A stretch of 64,000 nt of DNA from a virus (taxonomy: Duplodnaviria > Caudoviricetes), in IMG/VR virus record IMGVR_UViG_3300020374_000001. One strand, given 5' to 3'. The notes under the pieces are model-generated. The model saw only the letters and a program-made list of their open reading frames with translations. It was not told where the DNA came from and did no database searches. This document shows, piece after piece, positions 7,767 to 17,939 of this stretch (its first letter is position 1; each line of letters begins with the position of its first letter). A program made the position numbers and the translations under genes.

Positions 7767-8234
7767 ATGTTAGGAATTAGATTATTTTTAATTGGAATAC
7801 TCGCTAGCGCCGTAGTAGGCGCTGGCGTTTATGTGATGAAGTTGAGATCAGATAATGCTATTTTAAAAGCAAACGCTGTGAAAATGGAAGAAGCAATTTC
7901 AGATCAACAAGAACTAATCACACAACAAAAAGAAGATTTTAAAGAGATTATGGCTGCTAATCAAAAGATGAATGAGTTAGTAGGTAATCTTAAAAAAGAT
8001 TTAGAAGACCTTGATAAAAGGTTTAATAAAAACAATAGAGATTTTGGTAAACTTGCTTTAGAAAAAACAGGTGCCATTGAAAGAATAATTAACAAAGGTT
8101 CAGTAGCGGCTGCTAGATGTATAGAAATTGCTAGTGGTGCTGAACTTACTGAAGAGGAAATAAATGCTACAAAGAAGTCTGAAATTAATAGGGAGTGTCC
8201 TAGTATCGCTAATCCTAATTACGTCCCTTACTAG
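7767..8234 (+). CDS. Putative i-spanin (Rz-like)
   Basis: N-terminal TM, long coiled coil, C-terminal Cys; overlaps a lipoprotein gene. Confidence 0.6.
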   Translation: MLGIRLFLIGILASAVVGAGVYVMKLRSDNAILKANAVKMEEAISDQQELITQQKEDFKEIMAANQKMNELVGNLKKDLEDLDKRFNKNNRDFGKLALEKTGAIERIINKGSVAAARCIEIASGAELTEEEINATKKSEINRECPSIANPNYVPY

Positions 8235-9777: not shown

Positions 9778-9951
9778 ATGGAAGCTTCTGACGCAGTATT
9801 AATGTTGAGTAGATTATGGCCAATTTTTGTGGCATTTATTTTACTAATAGTCACCTTAGCGCAGGCACACTACCGAATCAAAGTATTAGAAGAAAAAGTT
9901 AAAGTCGCTTTTGAACTAATTAATAAACTTACAGACAAATTCAGTAAATAA
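9778..9951 (+). CDS. 57-aa single-TM protein (not in ORF track)
   Basis: MEASDAVLMLSRLWPIFVAFILLIVTLAQAHYRIKVLEEKVK... Confidence 0.55.
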   Translation: MEASDAVLMLSRLWPIFVAFILLIVTLAQAHYRIKVLEEKVKVAFELINKLTDKFSK

Positions 9952-9955
9952 TTCT

Positions 9956-9963
9956 TATAAATA
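9956..9963 (+). promoter_or_regulatory. T4-type late promoter for the curli-like operon
   Basis: TTCTTATAAATATA, same context as the promoter at 2166; GAGG RBS follows. Confidence 0.75.
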
Positions 9964-9984
9964 TACCTGTAAAGAGAGAGGTTT

Positions 9985-10452
9985 ATGGGAAAATTATCAC
10001 TAGCATTAGCGAGTATTTTAGTATTATTATCATTTCAATCAGCAAATTCAAGTGAACTTACTTTTGAGTTTGGGTCACCATCATTTTCTGGTAATGGTAA
10101 ATCATCACACTATCTCACAATTGAGAATATAGAGAAGACTAGAAAAGACGCTATCAAAGCACAAGAAAAAGCAGACAAAGAAAAAGCAGAAAACGAAGCA
10201 AAGAATACAGCAGTTGCTAAATTCAAAGCAAATGTTGAGGCAAGATTTTATACCGCTCTCGCAAAACAAATTACAGACAACGTATTTGGTACTGATGGTC
10301 TACAACAAGACTCAGGTACATTTACATCACCTACTGGTGGTGAAACCGTTGTATGGTCAACACCATCAGGCACAGGTAATGTTGTTGTAACCGTTACAGA
10401 ATCAGACGGAACCGTAACAACATTTACAATGCCTAAAGAGGACAACTCATAA
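9985..10452 (+). CDS. csgF: Curli assembly protein CsgF
   Basis: Signal peptide then SELTFEFGSPSFSGNG (CsgF N-terminal F.NPxFGG-like motif); directly upstream of csgG. Confidence 0.8.
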   Translation: MGKLSLALASILVLLSFQSANSSELTFEFGSPSFSGNGKSSHYLTIENIEKTRKDAIKAQEKADKEKAENEAKNTAVAKFKANVEARFYTALAKQITDNVFGTDGLQQDSGTFTSPTGGETVVWSTPSGTGNVVVTVTESDGTVTTFTMPKEDNS

Positions 10453-11468
10453 TGATAAAGTATATCGGAATATTCCTACTTTCTTTATTGTTAGTAGGTT
10501 GTGCTGGAAAAGCAAAGTTTGATGTAAGAACTCAAACGGTTGCTTATAAAGATTTATCAAATATAGAATCACCTAAAGGTGAACCTATTATAATTGCTGT
10601 CTATGATTTTTTAGATATGACAGGACAAAAGAAACCAGGTGGTTCTTTTGCGTCTATGAGTACGGCAGTAACTCAAGGATCGTATCAAATATTAATTAAA
10701 TCTTTACAAGACGCAGGCAATGGCGAATGGTTTAGAGTTGTTGAGAGATCAAGTTTACCTAGTTTATTACAAGAAAGAAAACTTATTAGATCAACAAGAC
10801 AACAAGTTAATGGTGAGGGTGCAGAACCTTTACCACCACTATTATTCGCAGGTGCATATATCACAGGTGGTATTGTTGGTTATGATTCAGATATTAAATC
10901 TGGTGGTTTTGGTGCTAGAGTATTAGGTATTCAGGCAAACAAACAATACAGACAAGATATAGTTACTATCATATTAAGATTAGTAAATGTACAAACAGGT
11001 GAAGTAGTAATATCTACAACGGTTGAGAAGACTATATTTTCTACATCAACAGGATCAGATATATTTAAATACTTTGATACTGATACAATGCTAGTTGAAG
11101 TTGAGGCTGGTTTTGCTAGAAACGAACCAGTTACTCTTGCAGTTAGAAAAGCAATTGAAAAAGGTGTAGTAGATGTTATTAATGCAGGTGTACAAAAAGG
11201 ACTATGGGAATTTGAACCTGTTAAAGAGGTAGTTGTACCAGAGATTATAGATTATGTTGATACTGAAACAGATATTTCAGTTGACATTGGTGAAGAAAAA
11301 GTAGAGAAAACTTACGAAGATTATCTTGCTGAAAAAGAGAAGGCAAAAGAAGAACGTAAGAAACAAATACAAGAAGAAGAAAAATTAAAAAAAGAATTAA
11401 AACAGGAGGAGAATGCTGATGAAACAGATAATGATAGCGATAGTGATTCTTCTGGCGACACTAAATAA
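10452..11468 (+). CDS. csgG: Curli secretion pore lipoprotein CsgG
   Basis: Lipobox LVG-C; AVYDFLDMTGQKK, STAVTQG, WFRVVER..L..LLQERKLIR, GGIVGYD, NEPV motifs. Confidence 0.92.
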   Translation: MIKYIGIFLLSLLLVGCAGKAKFDVRTQTVAYKDLSNIESPKGEPIIIAVYDFLDMTGQKKPGGSFASMSTAVTQGSYQILIKSLQDAGNGEWFRVVERSSLPSLLQERKLIRSTRQQVNGEGAEPLPPLLFAGAYITGGIVGYDSDIKSGGFGARVLGIQANKQYRQDIVTIILRLVNVQTGEVVISTTVEKTIFSTSTGSDIFKYFDTDTMLVEVEAGFARNEPVTLAVRKAIEKGVVDVINAGVQKGLWEFEPVKEVVVPEIIDYVDTETDISVDIGEEKVEKTYEDYLAEKEKAKEERKKQIQEEEKLKKELKQEENADETDNDSDSDSSGDTK

Positions 11469-12507
11469 TAGTTTCGCAGGTAACTCCGTTTATATCCAAC
11501 AAGATAATCAAAACAAATTAGGTTCTGTCTATATAAAACAAGACGGTACTAATAATAAATTTGGTATATCTACTTCAGCACCATTTGTAATAGATGGTCC
11601 TAATTTAACAATCACTATTAAACAATTAGGTAATTCAAACGAAACAGATGATACTGGCGATATGAAATTTAAAGGTGCTAATATGACCTTTGATTATATT
11701 GCAACAGGTGATTCAAATAAATTAAGATTAGATTTAGGCGATACAGACGCTGATGGACATTATTACGATATAGATGTTACAGGTTCATCAAACATAGTAG
11801 ATATAAGTGGTCATACAAGTGATGACATACAAGATACACACGTTGATTTAGATATAAGAGGAGACTCAAATGATTTTTGGGCATATGTTAGAGGTGACTC
11901 ACACTTCTTATATGTTCTTATGTCAGGAAATTCAAATGATGTAGAGTTTTATGGTGCAACGGTTTCAAGTGGTATGGTTGGTGCTAGTAAGGCAAATGTA
12001 ATGATTGGTCCTAATGTAGAATCACACGGACAATTTGCAGATACAACTGGTGATGAAGGTGCTACAATAGACATTTATATTATTGGTTCTTCAAATCAAG
12101 TACATATGGCAAGTTGGGGTAATGACAATTATCAAGTCCACGATGTTATAGGTGATTCAAATATTTTAGATGTACATCCAGACGCTATAGGTTCTCACGT
12201 AAGAATGGTTCAGTACGGCGATAATAATTATATGAAAACGGTTACAAGTGGTAACAATAACACTATAAGATATTATGGAAGTGGTGGAAGTAATAACGCA
12301 CAAATTTATCTTTACACAAGTGGTTCAATTGTAGAATTGAAACAAACAGGTGGCTCTAATACAGCAAATCTAACGGTCAATGGTGATTCAATTTATGATT
12401 ATACATTATTAGTTGACCAAGATGGTTCTGACACTTGCACATATTCATTTAATAGAAACGATCAAACTTCAGACACAACCGTTCAGTTAACTAATTCAGG
12501 TTGTTAA
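11413..12507 (+). CDS. Curlin-like (CsgA/CsgB-like) repeat protein
   Basis: Signal peptide; many ~11-aa beta repeats ending in (Q/x)xGxxN (QDGTNN, QLGNSN, TGDSN, TGSSN, QYGDNN, QTGGSN). Confidence 0.75.
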   Translation: MLMKQIMIAIVILLATLNNSFAGNSVYIQQDNQNKLGSVYIKQDGTNNKFGISTSAPFVIDGPNLTITIKQLGNSNETDDTGDMKFKGANMTFDYIATGDSNKLRLDLGDTDADGHYYDIDVTGSSNIVDISGHTSDDIQDTHVDLDIRGDSNDFWAYVRGDSHFLYVLMSGNSNDVEFYGATVSSGMVGASKANVMIGPNVESHGQFADTTGDEGATIDIYIIGSSNQVHMASWGNDNYQVHDVIGDSNILDVHPDAIGSHVRMVQYGDNNYMKTVTSGNNNTIRYYGSGGSNNAQIYLYTSGSIVELKQTGGSNTANLTVNGDSIYDYTLLVDQDGSDTCTYSFNRNDQTSDTTVQLTNSGC

Positions 12508-12508
12508 G

Positions 12509-14662
12509 ATGAGAAATCTTTATTTCATAGTATCATTTCTGGTACTTTTCTGTACTAGTGTTTTTTCTCAAATCACAAGTCCTAAAGTTGGCGAAATTGT
12601 AGGTCAAATGGGTTCTACTTTCAACGAAAGGGATGGCGGAACTGAAAAAGTTATAATGGGTTATGAATTGCAGATGAAAGACTTTTTACAAACAGGTGAA
12701 GATGGTGGTATGATAATAAGTTATGTAGATGGTACAAAGTTTACAATGGGACCTAATACAGAAAAAACAATTGATGAATTTGCTTTTGATACTTCAGTTG
12801 TTCCAATAGAATTAGCAATGAATGTATCAGTAAATGTAGGATCATTTACATATGAATCAGGTTCAGTATCTAATTTAGGTGGCGAGGTAAATATTAATGC
12901 TGGATTTGCCACGGTAACGGTACAAGGTACTGCTTTCTCAGCAAAGGTAGAAACTTCAGGTGTAGCAACTATTACTTTATTACCAGATAGTGATGGTGAT
13001 GTAGGTCAAGTTACGGTATCAACAGACGCAGGTTCTCAAACTATTACAAATGTTTACAATTCAGTTAAGGTTACATCAAACAATTTAACACCTACACCTC
13101 CTAAAATTGAAACAAATAAAAAAGATATTATAGAACTAGAACAATTTGAAGATGAAATAAAAGAAGATACATCTAAATCTTTTGGTGATACAGATAAGAA
13201 ATCTTCAATGTCTAAAGAAGAATCTAAAGCACAAGATATGGAAGAGGCATTAATTAATGAAGATGTTAGTATTGTAGAAGATACAAATGCTATTGTTCAA
13301 ACAGATATGTCAGTTAGTGAAACAGATTCAATGATTGAAACTCAATCAAAAGAAGAAAAGGCAATGGATACTGCTGCTGTAGAAAGTGAAGTAGATACAT
13401 CTTATTACGATCAATGGGAAGAAGATTTAAAAGAGTGGGATATCATAGATGAAAATAATGAAATATCAGTATGGGATGCTGATGGTGAAAAGAAAATGGA
13501 TTGGGATGACGCAAAACAAATGTACGCAGAAATGGATCAAGCATACTTTGACGCCATTGGTTGTTCAGATTGTACTTGGGATACTATTAATTGGGATGAA
13601 GTAAATTGGGATGATGTTGATTGGGATGCTTATGATAAGGCATATAATGAAACTTTAGAGAAGTATGGTCTATCATCTTGGAATGTAGAAACAGAATCAG
13701 TTGACGTAGTTGAAGAAACAAAAGATGAAACAGAAGCAGGTGTACAAGGTTATACTTGGGAAGACTTTGCAATGGATGACTCTTACTATTCAAATGCAGA
13801 ATACTTAAACAACGGTGGTCCACCTAAATTAACACAAGCAAATTATTGTGATTATAATGGTTATGATTCATCTTGGTGTAACCAAGAATACCTTGACTAC
13901 TTAAACGAATGGTATAAAGATGACTGGACTTTAAAGGTTATTGAAACCTCTTGGACTAAAAAGTCTAAAGAGATATTTGGTAAATTATATGGGTGGTGTG
14001 GAACTTATCCTAATTGGGAGATGTGTGCCGATCAACCTAAACCTTGGAAGATAAAAGATTTAAAAGACAAATATATTGCAGATTGGACTTGGGACGATTG
14101 GGATATTTACTGGCAAAAAATGAATGATTGGTGGTATGCAGGTTGGGAAGATGAACAAGCGGAAGATAGTTGGGAAGATGAATATGCTTACGAGGATGAA
14201 TACGATTTAGACGCAGAAACGGAACAATGGTTAGCAGATATAGACAATCAATGGGATTGTGAATGGTACGGATACTATTGGGATAAGGCAAACTCATCTT
14301 GTGGAACCGAGTGGGTTGATAATACCGAAGTAGAAACAGAAATAACTGCTAGTGGTGAAGAATTAAATTACCATACAGGTGATATAACACAAACTATTAC
14401 AACATCAAACGAACTTACAGGTTCATCTTCAGAAACTAGAACTGGTAGATACTCTACATTAAATAATGAATTTGACGCAACTGCCTCAACTTCAGGTGAT
14501 TACACTATAATTAATAGATATAATGATAATCATAGATCATATGTTAAAACTGAAACAGCAAACGAAGCAGACATACAAATACTACAAGACAAAGAGGCAC
14601 AACACCTTGATGTAGGTAGTAGTGAAAGTCAAAACAATATCACTATAATACAGACAGACTAA
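12509..14662 (+). CDS. Exported FecR-domain protein with acidic Trp/Cys-rich extension
   Basis: Signal peptide; D.LQTG..G...I...DGTKFTMGPNT...A.VTVQGTAF FecR signature. Confidence 0.75.
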   Translation: MRNLYFIVSFLVLFCTSVFSQITSPKVGEIVGQMGSTFNERDGGTEKVIMGYELQMKDFLQTGEDGGMIISYVDGTKFTMGPNTEKTIDEFAFDTSVVPIELAMNVSVNVGSFTYESGSVSNLGGEVNINAGFATVTVQGTAFSAKVETSGVATITLLPDSDGDVGQVTVSTDAGSQTITNVYNSVKVTSNNLTPTPPKIETNKKDIIELEQFEDEIKEDTSKSFGDTDKKSSMSKEESKAQDMEEALINEDVSIVEDTNAIVQTDMSVSETDSMIETQSKEEKAMDTAAVESEVDTSYYDQWEEDLKEWDIIDENNEISVWDADGEKKMDWDDAKQMYAEMDQAYFDAIGCSDCTWDTINWDEVNWDDVDWDAYDKAYNETLEKYGLSSWNVETESVDVVEETKDETEAGVQGYTWEDFAMDDSYYSNAEYLNNGGPPKLTQANYCDYNGYDSSWCNQEYLDYLNEWYKDDWTLKVIETSWTKKSKEIFGKLYGWCGTYPNWEMCADQPKPWKIKDLKDKYIADWTWDDWDIYWQKMNDWWYAGWEDEQAEDSWEDEYAYEDEYDLDAETEQWLADIDNQWDCEWYGYYWDKANSSCGTEWVDNTEVETEITASGEELNYHTGDITQTITTSNELTGSSSETRTGRYSTLNNEFDATASTSGDYTIINRYNDNHRSYVKTETANEADIQILQDKEAQHLDVGSSESQNNITIIQTD

Positions 14663-14670
14663 ATAGTCTT

Positions 14671-16368
14671 ATGAACAAGTTTACTTCCACGTGGGCAGTA
14701 GTGGTAAGTGTGATTATATTATTGGCGTTAAAAGTATATAATCCAATACCTTTACAGACCCTACAATTAAAAACATTTGACTTATATCAAAAGTTTGGTA
14801 ATAATTATAAATCAAAAAGTCTAGTCTTAATAGATATATCAGATAATTCATTAAACTTATATGGTCAATGGCCGTGGAAAAGAGATCAATTAGGTCGTGC
14901 TGTTATTAAAGCATATCAAAATGGTGCCGCTTTAGTTTTCTTAAATGTAGTTTTTGTACATAAAGATAGACTAGGTGGTGATGAAATGTTTTTAAAAATG
15001 ATCTCAAAGTATCCTGTTATCTTAACAGAAACTAAAGACGCAAAAAATTTAATCAGTATAAAAAGAAAAGTATTAGGTGTAGGTAATGTAGATGTACCTA
15101 TTGATGTTGATGGTACTATTAGAAAATTACCTTTAGAAAATTCTGTACCAGAAACAATACTAAAAATTATTAAGTTTAAAATACCTAAACAAGATGATAT
15201 ATGGATAGATTTTAGACATCAAATACCTAGAATAGATCACGCAGAATTAGATTGGTCATCTGTAAAAGGTAAAATTGTATTCATAGGTGCTACGTTTTCA
15301 GGTTCAACATATGTATTAACACCTGATGGTCTAAAAAATCCACACGATATAATGGCAATGTCAACTGAAACTTTATTATCAGGTAAGTATATTCAAAGAC
15401 CTGATTGGTTGCCTAAATTAGAATGGATAGGATTTATATTAGGTCTACTTGCATTTGTATTGATTATACCTAGAGTAGGTTTACTATGGTCAGCAGTATT
15501 ACTATTTGGTGCATATGCTGATATTGCTTTAGGTTCTGCTTATCTATGGCATAGTAAAATGATAATTACAGACTGGTCTTATATTGCAATTGCAATGACT
15601 ATTGTATGGACACATTTAATATATAATAACTTTGCAAGAGAGAATAGATTAAAGTTACAAATTAAAAAACAATTTGAACATTACCTAGAACCTAAAATGG
15701 TTAAGAAACTACAACAGAATCCTGACTTACTAAAATTAGGTGGTGAAACAAAAGAACTAACATTTTTATTTTGTGATATAAGAGGATTTACACCATTGTC
15801 AGAAAAGTATCAAAAGAATCCTGCAGAATTAACAAAAGTAATTAATAGATTTTTAACACCTATGACAGAAATAATTATGAGAAATGGCGGAACAATTGAT
15901 AAATATATGGGTGATTGTATAATGGCATTTTGGAATGCGCCTATTGACACACCAAAACACAAAGAGTTAGCAATAACTTCAGCACTTGAAATGATGGATA
16001 AATTAGATTATTTAAATAATATGAATGGTTTTGGAGATCAAAATAAAATAAATATAGGTATCGGAATCAATACAGGAAAATGTATTGTCGGTAATATGGG
16101 TAGTAAACAAAGATTTGACTATTCAGTTATAGGTGATCCTGTAAACTTGGCAAGTAGATTAGAGGGAGTTTCTAAAAACTATGACGCCACATTGGTAGTG
16201 GGAGAAGATACCTACCGTGATATATCTACATTATATAACTTTAAACTTTTAGACGAGGTACAAGTAAAAGGTAAATCTAATAAAGTTTCAATATACACAA
16301 TAGAGAGAGAAAATGGACTACGGAACAATAAATCTAATATTAATCACAGGACTTCTAATTTGGTATAA
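14671..16368 (+). CDS. CHASE2-domain class III adenylate cyclase
   Basis: N-terminal TM; CHASE2 motifs (IDI..SL..YGQWPWKR, DVDGTIR, GKIVFIG); 3 TMs; cyclase motifs FCDIRGFT, DKYMGDCIMAFW, DYSVIGDPVNLASRLEG, VKGK. Confidence 0.92.
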   Translation: MNKFTSTWAVVVSVIILLALKVYNPIPLQTLQLKTFDLYQKFGNNYKSKSLVLIDISDNSLNLYGQWPWKRDQLGRAVIKAYQNGAALVFLNVVFVHKDRLGGDEMFLKMISKYPVILTETKDAKNLISIKRKVLGVGNVDVPIDVDGTIRKLPLENSVPETILKIIKFKIPKQDDIWIDFRHQIPRIDHAELDWSSVKGKIVFIGATFSGSTYVLTPDGLKNPHDIMAMSTETLLSGKYIQRPDWLPKLEWIGFILGLLAFVLIIPRVGLLWSAVLLFGAYADIALGSAYLWHSKMIITDWSYIAIAMTIVWTHLIYNNFARENRLKLQIKKQFEHYLEPKMVKKLQQNPDLLKLGGETKELTFLFCDIRGFTPLSEKYQKNPAELTKVINRFLTPMTEIIMRNGGTIDKYMGDCIMAFWNAPIDTPKHKELAITSALEMMDKLDYLNNMNGFGDQNKINIGIGINTGKCIVGNMGSKQRFDYSVIGDPVNLASRLEGVSKNYDATLVVGEDTYRDISTLYNFKLLDEVQVKGKSNKVSIYTIERENGLRNNKSNINHRTSNLV

Positions 16369-16405
16369 CATATCAATATATAATTGGATAGAACGAGAAT
16401 TTTAA
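16313..16405 (+). CDS. 30-aa hydrophobic protein overlapping the cyclase 3' end
   Basis: GAGAGAG RBS-like; MDYGTINLILITGLLIWYNISIYNWIEREF; TAATG coupling to the next gene. Confidence 0.45.
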   Translation: MDYGTINLILITGLLIWYNISIYNWIEREF

Positions 16406-16836
16406 TGCCAGATACAGACATAAGAGTACAACTCGAATCACTTACAAAAGATATAGAAAATATTAATAATATTCAAGGTCGTTTAGATACTGCCATTGAT
16501 AAATTAACAGATGTATCAACGTCTATTAAATCAATGTTAGCAGTACACGAAGAAAAAATACAAAGACAAGAACAAATAGACGATATTATATTTAAGAAAT
16601 TAAAAGATAGAGATAGAGAAGTTGACGAAGTTTTTAGAGACCTACAAAGAGAAATGGATCAAGTGGAGAAACGATTATTAAACGAGATTAGGTCTTTACG
16701 TAATGATTTAACTGGTAGAGTAGGAGTCCTAGAAAAGTATAGATGGATTATACTAGGTGGATTCATTGCTGTAGGGTGGATATTATCTAAAAACTTCAAA
16801 TTTATAATGCAAATGATGTCTGGAACAGGTATTTAA
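16405..16836 (+). CDS. Coiled-coil protein with C-terminal TM (conserved T4-like; holin-like candidate)
   Basis: MLAVHEEKI motif; LEKYRWIILGG TM. Confidence 0.5.
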   Translation: MPDTDIRVQLESLTKDIENINNIQGRLDTAIDKLTDVSTSIKSMLAVHEEKIQRQEQIDDIIFKKLKDRDREVDEVFRDLQREMDQVEKRLLNEIRSLRNDLTGRVGVLEKYRWIILGGFIAVGWILSKNFKFIMQMMSGTGI

Positions 16837-16898
16837 CTTTTTATCTGTAGGAAAATTCGGCGACAATTTTTTGACTGAAAAAGTCGGTCATATTACGC

Positions 16899-16927
16899 TT
16901 GACTTTTTTAGTGAAATGTAGTATATT
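16899..16927 (+). promoter_or_regulatory. sigma70-type early promoter
   Basis: TTGACT-17-TATATT. Confidence 0.7.
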
Positions 16928-16937
16928 TAATACTGCT

Positions 16938-17939
16938 ATGTCAAGTTATATTGATCTAAAATTTATTAATGATGTTTCAAGTAGATTAAGTCAGTTTAAA
17001 AAGAAAACTGATTACTTATTCAACTTCAGATGTCCTCATTGTGGAGATTCACAAAAGTCCAAAACAAAGGCGAGAGCATATCTTTATCGTGTAAAAAATG
17101 ATATGTTTTTTAAATGTCATAATTGTGGACTAGGGCAAAACTTTGCCAACTTTTTAAAATTTGTAGACCCTAAATTATATTCTGAATATGTTTTAGAGAG
17201 ATACAAAGGATCGGCACCTGCGACACCGACACCAAAGTTTGATTTTAAACCAGTCAAGTTTAAAGATCAAACAATACTAGATGATCTAAAATCTATTTCT
17301 GATTTGTCTGAAGATCATCCTGCTAGATTATATTGTATAAAACGAAAGATACCTAAAAAGTATTTTGATATTCTATATCTATGTAATAAGTTTATGACTT
17401 TAGTTAACAAAGTAAAACCAAAAACTTACAAAGTTATTAAAGATCATCCTAGACTTATCATACCGTTTTTTGATACAACAGGAAAGTTGTTTGCTTTTCA
17501 AGGTCGTGCTTTCGGTAAAGAACAACCAAAGTATCTAACAATTAAACTAGATGAAAACAAACAAAAAATTTACGGTCTGGAACGAGTTAACTTTACAAAA
17601 GAGGTTAGAATCGTTGAAGGCCCGATTGATAGTTTATTTATTGATAATTGTCTTGCTGCCGCTGGCGCTGATTTATTTTTAAAAAATAAAATATCTAATG
17701 AAAAAGTTTTATACATATTTGATAACGAACCTCGGAATAAAGAGATCGTTGATAGAATGTATAAAGTGATTGAAAATAATTTTAACATTGTTATATGGCC
17801 AGATGATATACAACTTAAAGATGTAAACGATATGATTATCAATGGCACAAGTCCTAGTGAAATTGAAAATATTATAAGTAAGAACACATACAGCAAATTA
17901 TCGGCATTAACAAAATTAACTCATTGGAAAAAGGTTTAA
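16938..17939 (+). CDS. gp61: DNA primase (T4 gp61)
   Basis: Zn finger RCPHCGDS...KCHNC; TOPRIM VEGPIDS, FDNEPRN, KDVND; ATG start MSSYID. Confidence 0.93.
   Translation: MSSYIDLKFINDVSSRLSQFKKKTDYLFNFRCPHCGDSQKSKTKARAYLYRVKNDMFFKCHNCGLGQNFANFLKFVDPKLYSEYVLERYKGSAPATPTPKFDFKPVKFKDQTILDDLKSISDLSEDHPARLYCIKRKIPKKYFDILYLCNKFMTLVNKVKPKTYKVIKDHPRLIIPFFDTTGKLFAFQGRAFGKEQPKYLTIKLDENKQKIYGLERVNFTKEVRIVEGPIDSLFIDNCLAAAGADLFLKNKISNEKVLYIFDNEPRNKEIVDRMYKVIENNFNIVIWPDDIQLKDVNDMIINGTSPSEIENIISKNTYSKLSALTKLTHWKKV

Follow-up and report, generated by a model that had tools for sequence, protein, structure and literature searches.

A cassette of five genes at positions 9956-16368 of a 64,000-nucleotide stretch of phage DNA (Caudoviricetes; IMG/VR record IMGVR_UViG_3300020374_000001; hereafter the window, meaning the stretch at its full length) encodes the parts of a curli-type secretion system together with an exported FecR-domain protein and a membrane-bound cyclase. 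By analogy with bacterial systems, we read it as a curli-type secretion system linked to a bacterial-type, mostly alphaproteobacterial, FecR/CHASE2 sensor pair that would convert the state of the cell envelope into cyclic AMP (cAMP), and we give this reading a probability of about 0.5. The genes lie on the + strand in the order csgF, csgG, CsgA-like curlin, FecR-domain protein and CHASE2 cyclase, an operon that an earlier note on this DNA had already described correctly. They are tightly coupled: csgF and csgG overlap by 1 nt and csgG and the curlin gene by 56 nt, and gaps of 1 nt and 8 nt precede the FecR and cyclase genes, respectively. Together they take up about 6.4 kb of the genome of a T4-like marine myophage of the SAR11 type, whose closest DNA relatives are the Pelagibacter phages Mosig and HTVC008M.

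Curli genes in these phages were first reported by Zaragoza-Solas et al. 2020 (PMC7029224), and a full type VIII secretion system (T8SS) module that includes FecR and adenylate cyclase was then described from podo- and myo-pelagiphages, along with its global distribution and expression (Wittmers et al. 2022, PMC9599517). The window cassette is the five-gene, long-FecR form of this published module, whose genes are also annotated in GenBank, and the novelty implied by the earlier note was thus overstated. The HTVC008M annotation lists, in order, csgF, csgG, a "curlin-associated protein", two hypothetical proteins and an "adenylate/guanylyl cyclase"; that of the Methylophilales phage Melnitz lists CsgF, CsgG, a curlin repeat protein, a FecR domain protein, a curlin repeat protein and a cyclase. 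The window shares with the pelagiphage module the co-located and co-oriented genes for CsgF, CsgG, curlin, FecR and cyclase, a T4-like marine myophage as carrier and the absence of CsgE and CsgD, and its proteins are 33-45% identical to those of HTVC008M. Unlike the six-gene cassettes (HTVC008M, Melnitz and the loci L039 and L040), it has one long curlin of 364 amino acids (aa) and no second curlin gene in the 8-nt gap between FecR and cyclase, and its FecR protein has 717 aa, with a Trp/Asp-rich, Cys-paired region, where that of the six-gene form has 341-392 aa. The second curlin gene is a variable feature of the module, frequent in the myophage versions and not required (Wittmers et al. 2022, PMC9599517). 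The location differs as well: the window cassette sits between a spanin block and the genes for primase and ribonucleotide reductase, whereas in HTVC008M and Melnitz it sits between ssb and baseplate genes. The pelagiphage curli papers (Zaragoza-Solas 2020, Buchholz 2022 and Wittmers 2022) do not mention CHASE2 or NsrA/CyaK, and a literature search turned up no functional study of the cassette after Wittmers et al. 2022.

The last gene of the cassette (14671-16368, + strand) encodes a 565-aa protein that, as judged from its sequence, is an inner-membrane adenylate cyclase whose CHASE2 domain is periplasmic and whose catalytic residues are all in place. A first transmembrane segment is followed by CHASE2 at about residues 25-246, three further transmembrane segments and a class III cyclase domain at about residues 360-545; the hydrophobic segments span residues 2-29 and 246-318. 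Pfam recovers both domains (CHASE2, PF05226, E 2.3e-28 over residues 14-261; Guanylate_cyc, E 1.4e-24), and the protein aligns best with P. aeruginosa CyaB (3r5g, E 2.5e-33). The cyclase motifs pointed out in the earlier note, FCD369, DK411Y, MGD415 and VN492LASR496, are all present, together with D483, and they supply the metal-binding aspartates D369 and D415, the adenine-specifying K411 and D483, and the transition-state residues N492 and R496. Across 36 phage and metagenomic relatives, D369, K411, D415, N492, R496 and K533 are invariant and D483 is nearly so. Because this conserved catalytic set is complete, the cyclase should be active and ATP-specific.

The pairing of such a cyclase with a FecR protein recurs in bacteria. 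We compared the 80 bacterial loci, mostly alphaproteobacterial, that ranked best among those with a gene for a relative of the cyclase: a FecR-like open reading frame (ORF) lies within 8 kb in 27 of them and immediately upstream on the same strand in 16, and CsgG is found in none of the 80. Pfam FecR was confirmed in eight of the nine partner proteins checked, joined to tetratricopeptide repeat (TPR) or to cadherin/RTX parts. It stands at the N-terminus of proteins of 1200-1400 aa, followed by TPR in Sinorhizobium sp. and Rhizobium leguminosarum or by cadherin/Big_9/RTX in Methylobacterium and Bradyrhizobium. Since FecR is common to these varied partner proteins beside CHASE2, it looks like a constant adaptor, while the remainder of the partner varies. 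From this comparison we infer that FecR and the CHASE2 cyclase make up a module that also stands alone in bacteria, mostly Alphaproteobacteria, and that a phage lineage joined it to the CsgGF-curlin set, rather than that an iron regulator and a stray cyclase happen to lie together.

Two bacterial systems offer close points of comparison. In Sinorhizobium meliloti, NsrA is required for cAMP signalling via the CHASE2 cyclase CyaK. The NsrA/CyaK (CyaD1, CyaD2)/Clr system resembles the window in combining an extracytoplasmic partner with an inner-membrane CHASE2 class III cyclase, and in the window, too, the gene for the FecR partner adjoins that for the cyclase; in the Sinorhizobium sp. and R. 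leguminosarum loci, FecR-TPR proteins of about 1200-1290 aa are encoded directly upstream of the cyclase. Unlike the Sinorhizobium system, the phage protein has no TPR or beta-barrel match and is coupled to CsgGF and curlin, as in none of the 80 bacterial loci, and a Clr/CRP-type receptor was not found in 25 related phage records. The Burkholderia/Pseudomonas 'BiofilmReg' operon (PMC5192318) encodes a LysM-FecR protein and a CHASE2 kinase, so that here again the gene for a periplasmic FecR protein stands beside that for a CHASE2 membrane sensor, in a biofilm-related context; its output, however, is a response regulator and histidine kinase, and it has no cyclase, secretion pore or curlin. Near viral csgFG, a CHASE2 histidine kinase was found in none of the 76 loci scanned, a sample outside which the podophage versions fall, and all CHASE2 matches were the cyclase itself.

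Relatives of the cyclase also occur in two other settings. In a metagenomic stretch (L031:1-10399; also L032 and L033), a relative 45% identical to the phage cyclase lies beside a TolC-like outer-membrane efflux protein (OEP), a 234-aa ABC fragment, an HlyD-like protein and a divergent protein, at least 876 aa long, in which a FecR domain comes first and cadherin repeats follow. This cassette appears to be a type I secretion counterpart of the curli one. At 32-36% GC the region is AT-rich; it adjoins a phage-type SNase endonuclease, and its origin may be either phage or bacterial. In a 1.4-Mb alphaproteobacterial single-cell genome (L066, genome G003, contig C4; also L121 and L122), a cyclase relative lies a few kb from two proteins that bind cyclic nucleoside monophosphates (cNMP), and an RTX protein in the neighbourhood has an N-terminus that matches the hidden Markov model of the phage FecR domain (E 6.6e-17) but not Pfam FecR. 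This may be a bacterial version with its own cAMP readers next door. The genome was considered as a member of SAR11 and rejected, its order holding 42 species and the 16S probes described below giving no match.

The FecR-domain protein of the window (12509-14662, + strand; 717 aa) has a signal peptide and is predicted to be exported by the Sec pathway. An alignment of its orthologues divides it into a FecR domain at about residues 25-200, a variable acidic linker at about 200-295, a Trp/Asp-rich region at about 295-600 and a conserved, beta-rich C-terminus. The Pfam FecR match (PF04773) of the window protein itself reaches E 0.025 and 15.5 bits against a 24-bit cut-off; 10 of 14 orthologues match, with a best E of 3.4e-8, and the homologue at L040 matches at 1.5e-10. 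In an AlphaFold2 (AF2) model, residues 101-201 superimpose on the C-terminal cell-surface signalling domain of PupR (6ovm; Z 8.9, root-mean-square deviation 2.2, 89 residues aligned) and on a FecR-type anti-sigma factor (4m0h; Z 8.6), the next match falling to Z 5.6. Taken together, the family and structure matches identify an N-terminal FecR/PupR-type domain, a label that holds at the level of family and fold. The model as a whole is poor, with a mean predicted local distance difference test score (pLDDT) of 54.7.

The central region of the same protein (window 13390-14310, residues about 295-600) is rich in Trp, Asp and Glu, carries four invariant pairs of cysteines and is predicted to be mostly helical, with a pLDDT of 70-85. 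It is confined to the long-FecR, five-gene cassettes. It matched no family and no protein-atlas entry, and none of its PDB matches rose above a Z of about 4.5; Pfam gave no TPR or barrel family match anywhere in the FecR protein, and no barrel was seen in its poor AF2 model. The acidic linker and the C-terminus likewise returned neither a family nor a fold. The relay proposed in the earlier note led from curlin to FecR, and nothing was found that links the two. The C-terminal region of the FecR protein, considered as a curlin strand or as a fused second curlin, found support in neither role, with an hhalign probability of 1.4% against curlin and a BLAST E of about 0.4 against the HTVC008M curlins.

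Within viruses, FecR and cyclase travel with csgFG. In 28 IMG/VR loci whose CsgG is 68-95% identical to that of the window, all five genes are present wherever the contig reaches far enough. A wider scan took in 80 viral stretches, the best of at least 579 that encode CsgG; FecR is present at 55 of the 56 loci informative for it, and the cyclase at all 50. The two genes are thus not, as a rule, missing from phage csgFG loci, an absence that, according to the earlier note, would have refuted its reading. The FecR protein takes a short form (341-392 aa, the six-gene type) in 30 loci and a long form (706-850 aa, the five-gene type of the window) in 25 of the 55. In 32 loci the cyclase gene stands downstream, on the same strand, and in 18 it is upstream and divergent; its retention in both arrangements indicates that the linkage survives rearrangement. 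The cassette is also very abundant in ocean viromes: more than 120 near-identical cyclase variants stand among the matches listed, and at least 579 viral stretches encode a relative of CsgG.

The promoter box that the earlier note had placed ahead of csgF is likewise exact and conserved. The sequence TATAAATA, the T4-type late promoter consensus, stands at 9956-9963 (+ strand), 29 nt 5' of the csgF ATG, and is kept 27-52 nt 5' of csgF in 26 of 28 related loci despite differing flanking sequence and upstream neighbours. It fits a T4-type late promoter, and the cassette is probably transcribed late. In the whole window TATAAATA is under-represented, with 7 copies against 17.6 ± 4.6 expected from shuffles, and all 7 lie on the coding (+) strand; this scarcity and strand preference suggest that stray late promoters are selected against. 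In about a third of related phages (L006-L014, L029 and L030; 18 of 50 in L124-L199) an inverted cyclase gene stands directly upstream of csgF and divergent from it, and the short spacer between them still carries TATAAATA for csgF.

The secretion half of the cassette is recognisable in all its parts. The csgF gene (9985-10452, + strand) encodes a 155-aa protein that has a signal peptide and whose mature N-terminus starts SELTFEFGSPSFSGNG; the product matches Pfam PF10614 at E 1.8e-12, scoring 48 bits against a 25.8-bit cut-off, and is 38% identical to the CsgF of HTVC008M. A phmmer search of the PDB with this protein found no CsgF chain, which leaves the Pfam match unaffected. The csgG gene (10452-11468, + strand) encodes the predicted outer-membrane channel protein, a lipoprotein of 338 aa with the lipobox LVGC, a full-length match to its family (PF03783, E 7e-52) and a match of E 5.4e-49 to the E. 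coli CsgG structures 3x2r and 6l7a. From about residue 265 its C-terminal tail is acidic and Lys-rich, and the tail after this residue brings the relatives of CsgG to 305-474 aa. Gly, Ser and Met of the phage protein are aligned to the loop residues Tyr, Asn and Phe of E. coli CsgG, which form the channel constriction there. By their family assignments, CsgG and CsgF should form an outer-membrane channel; CsgE was not found in related phages.

The putative cargo of this channel is a multi-repeat protein of 364 aa (11413-12507, + strand) with a signal peptide and about 20 G-x-x-N turns. Curlin_rpt (PF07012) matches the window protein at E 0.097, below the cut-off, and 10 of 16 orthologues match, with a best E of 6e-6. 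Its AF2 model is an all-beta solenoid, strand-turn-strand throughout, with a predicted template-modelling score of 0.74. Foldseek against the PDB returned nothing at E <= 0.001 for this model; an exhaustive VIA search then gave CsgA of Pontibacter korlensis (8c50) as the best match, with a Z of 21.9, 257 residues aligned and 22% identity, the next matches being generic beta-helices at Z 16.5, about 5 Z units lower. Family and fold together identify the protein as a CsgA-like curlin, which is presumably the secreted fibre subunit. The cassette thereby shares CsgG, CsgF and a CsgA-type beta-solenoid subunit with the curli system of E. coli and Salmonella (csgBAC-csgDEFG). It differs from that system in having no CsgE, no CsgD and no recognisable CsgB or CsgC, in its much longer curlin, in the residues aligned to the channel constriction, and in the addition of FecR and cyclase.

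In the mechanism that we propose, the periplasmic FecR domain would contact CHASE2, and the pair would report either the condition of the envelope or surface, as sensed by the remainder of the FecR protein, or the state of curli secretion itself. This contact would then change cAMP synthesis in the infected cell. A periplasmic meeting of FecR and CHASE2 seems the most likely arrangement because in bacteria FecR makes up the N-terminal end of large envelope or surface proteins whose C-terminal portions vary (TPR, cadherin/RTX or LysM). Analogy and gene context make the step from FecR to CHASE2 plausible. Of the relay claimed in the earlier note, the recurrence of the pair holds, both in the bacterial loci and in NsrA/CyaK; a direct contact is plausible. 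A complex prediction for CHASE2 residues 26-246 and FecR residues 22-200, run without controls, scored 0.00 against a mark of 0.32 and counts neither way.

Several points weigh against this mechanism. As many as 53 of the 80 bacterial loci have no FecR neighbour within 8 kb, so not every CHASE2 cyclase is paired in this way. Confidence is low for the FecR region in the AF2 model, where pLDDT is mostly below 60 at residues 1-130, and the expected activity of the cyclase is read from its residues alone. The four conserved cysteine pairs suggest that the central part of the FecR protein folds in the periplasm into a domain held by disulfide bonds; such a domain argues against passage through the narrow CsgG channel, and the description of the system as trans-envelope in the earlier note is therefore unproven. 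The signal would also be an output without a known target, as no cAMP receptor was found in the 25 related phage records and such receptors are rare in the SAR11 family.

These last counts come from searches with the cNMP-binding domain PF00027. The phage records were the complete HTVC008M and Melnitz and 23 IMG/VR cassette records, seven of the 25 (HTVC008M, Melnitz and five from IMG/VR) being complete or at least 90% complete, and none of them encodes the domain. Among 41 genomes of the SAR11 family, a sample that includes incomplete genomes, PF00027 occurs in two and class III cyclase domains likewise in two. The host family is that of the 1.3-Mb genome G451, which was assigned to SAR11 because it matches two 16S probe targets exactly, at a spacing of 276 nt; the host-side counts depend on this assignment. 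With cNMP-binding domains not found in the 25 phage records and rare in the likely hosts, the tuning of host CRP regulons that the earlier note had advanced as a possibility is weakened. If cAMP is indeed made by the phage, its reader must be something unrecognised. The question of what the cassette does is sharpened on two sides: FecR and cyclase occur free-standing in bacteria, and a standard cAMP-binding domain is found neither in the related phages nor in most likely-host genomes. Cultured pairs that carry the cassette are HTVC008M with HTCC1062 and Melnitz with H5P1.

Other readings place the control or the purpose of the cassette elsewhere. In the published interpretation (Wittmers et al. 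2022, PMC9599517) regulation runs from the inside out: the phage would build a curli fibre factory for aggregation ('sibling capture') or superinfection exclusion, and FecR and cyclase would regulate the expression or the function of the T8SS in place of CsgD and CsgE, with no surface signal to report. The curlin is truly CsgA-like, CsgE was not found in related phages and the genes co-occur at near 1:1 frequency, all of which agrees with such a factory. The operon, however, lies behind a conserved phage late-promoter box, and since a cAMP-responsive transcription factor was not found in the phage records and is rare in the host family, no route is apparent by which cAMP could control transcription. 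The bacterial FecR-CHASE2 pair, moreover, occurs without CsgG (0/80), and Melnitz-infected cells did not clump (Buchholz et al. 2022). We regard this inside-out reading as rather unlikely. A role in lysis was proposed for Melnitz CsgGF in the same study by Buchholz et al. 2022, and it can be extended to a timing device in which an ungated CsgGF pore acts like a secretin or pinholin and FecR-cyclase sets the moment at which it opens or lysis begins, perhaps on superinfection. The late-type promoter box would suit such a device, as would a cassette that follows a spanin/DUF1353 block in the window and in L039 and that has a phage lysozyme about 1.6 kb upstream in L040. The HTVC008M and Melnitz cassettes, however, lie between ssb and baseplate genes, away from lysis genes, and the downstream neighbours in the window are primase and ribonucleotide reductase; an outer-membrane pore would not depolarise the inner membrane, and a conserved full-length curlin would be unneeded. 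A timing device of this kind is very unlikely, and the superinfection sensing and lysis timing advanced in the earlier note amount to speculation, the 'holin-like' flank being in fact a primase.

The lack of CsgE in related phages, together with Gly, Ser and Met where the constriction of E. coli CsgG has Tyr, Asn and Phe, would also fit an open CsgGF pore that takes up nutrients or cofactors, with FecR as an iron- or siderophore-related sensor and the cyclase as an unrelated host-takeover gene. Uptake was proposed by Zaragoza-Solas et al. 2020 (PMC7029224) and by Wittmers et al. 2022 (PMC9599517). It leaves the conserved curlin unexplained, as well as the linkage of the cyclase through two arrangements; FecR is paired with CHASE2, as in bacteria lacking an iron-transport context, and no TonB-dependent transducer or extracytoplasmic function (ECF) sigma factor was seen beside the FecR gene in the scans made. 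An uptake channel is in our judgement highly improbable. It is tempting to carry the envelope-to-cAMP reading, which we prefer, one step further. A host lineage that is largely without cyclases and cNMP-binding proteins may receive from the phage an entire cAMP pathway running from the outside in: the periplasmic FecR domain of a surface-connected protein would be read by CHASE2, and an unrecognised phage-encoded receptor would set a late decision, such as lysis timing, a superinfection response or release. FecR and the CHASE2 cyclase could then be a general monitor of outer-membrane secretion systems, of the T8SS here and of TolC/HlyD-type systems with FecR-cadherin/RTX proteins elsewhere. 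We offer this as a conjecture that is decidedly unlikely to hold in full.

The flanks of the cassette differ in part from what the earlier note had described as spanin and holin-like genes. The spanin stands: about 1.7 kb upstream is an Rz-like spanin gene (7767-8234; phrog_739), which a lipoprotein ORF overlaps. Between it and the promoter box is an ORF of 57 aa with a single transmembrane segment (9778-9951) that has no family match. The holin-like flank is unsupported, because the 3' neighbours of the cassette are DNA primase and ribonucleotide reductase. At window positions 16384-17939, two adjacent ORFs of 150 aa and 346 aa cover positions 8-113 and 122-461 of phrog_451 (DNA primase-like), and the pair is either a split primase or a two-gene arrangement.

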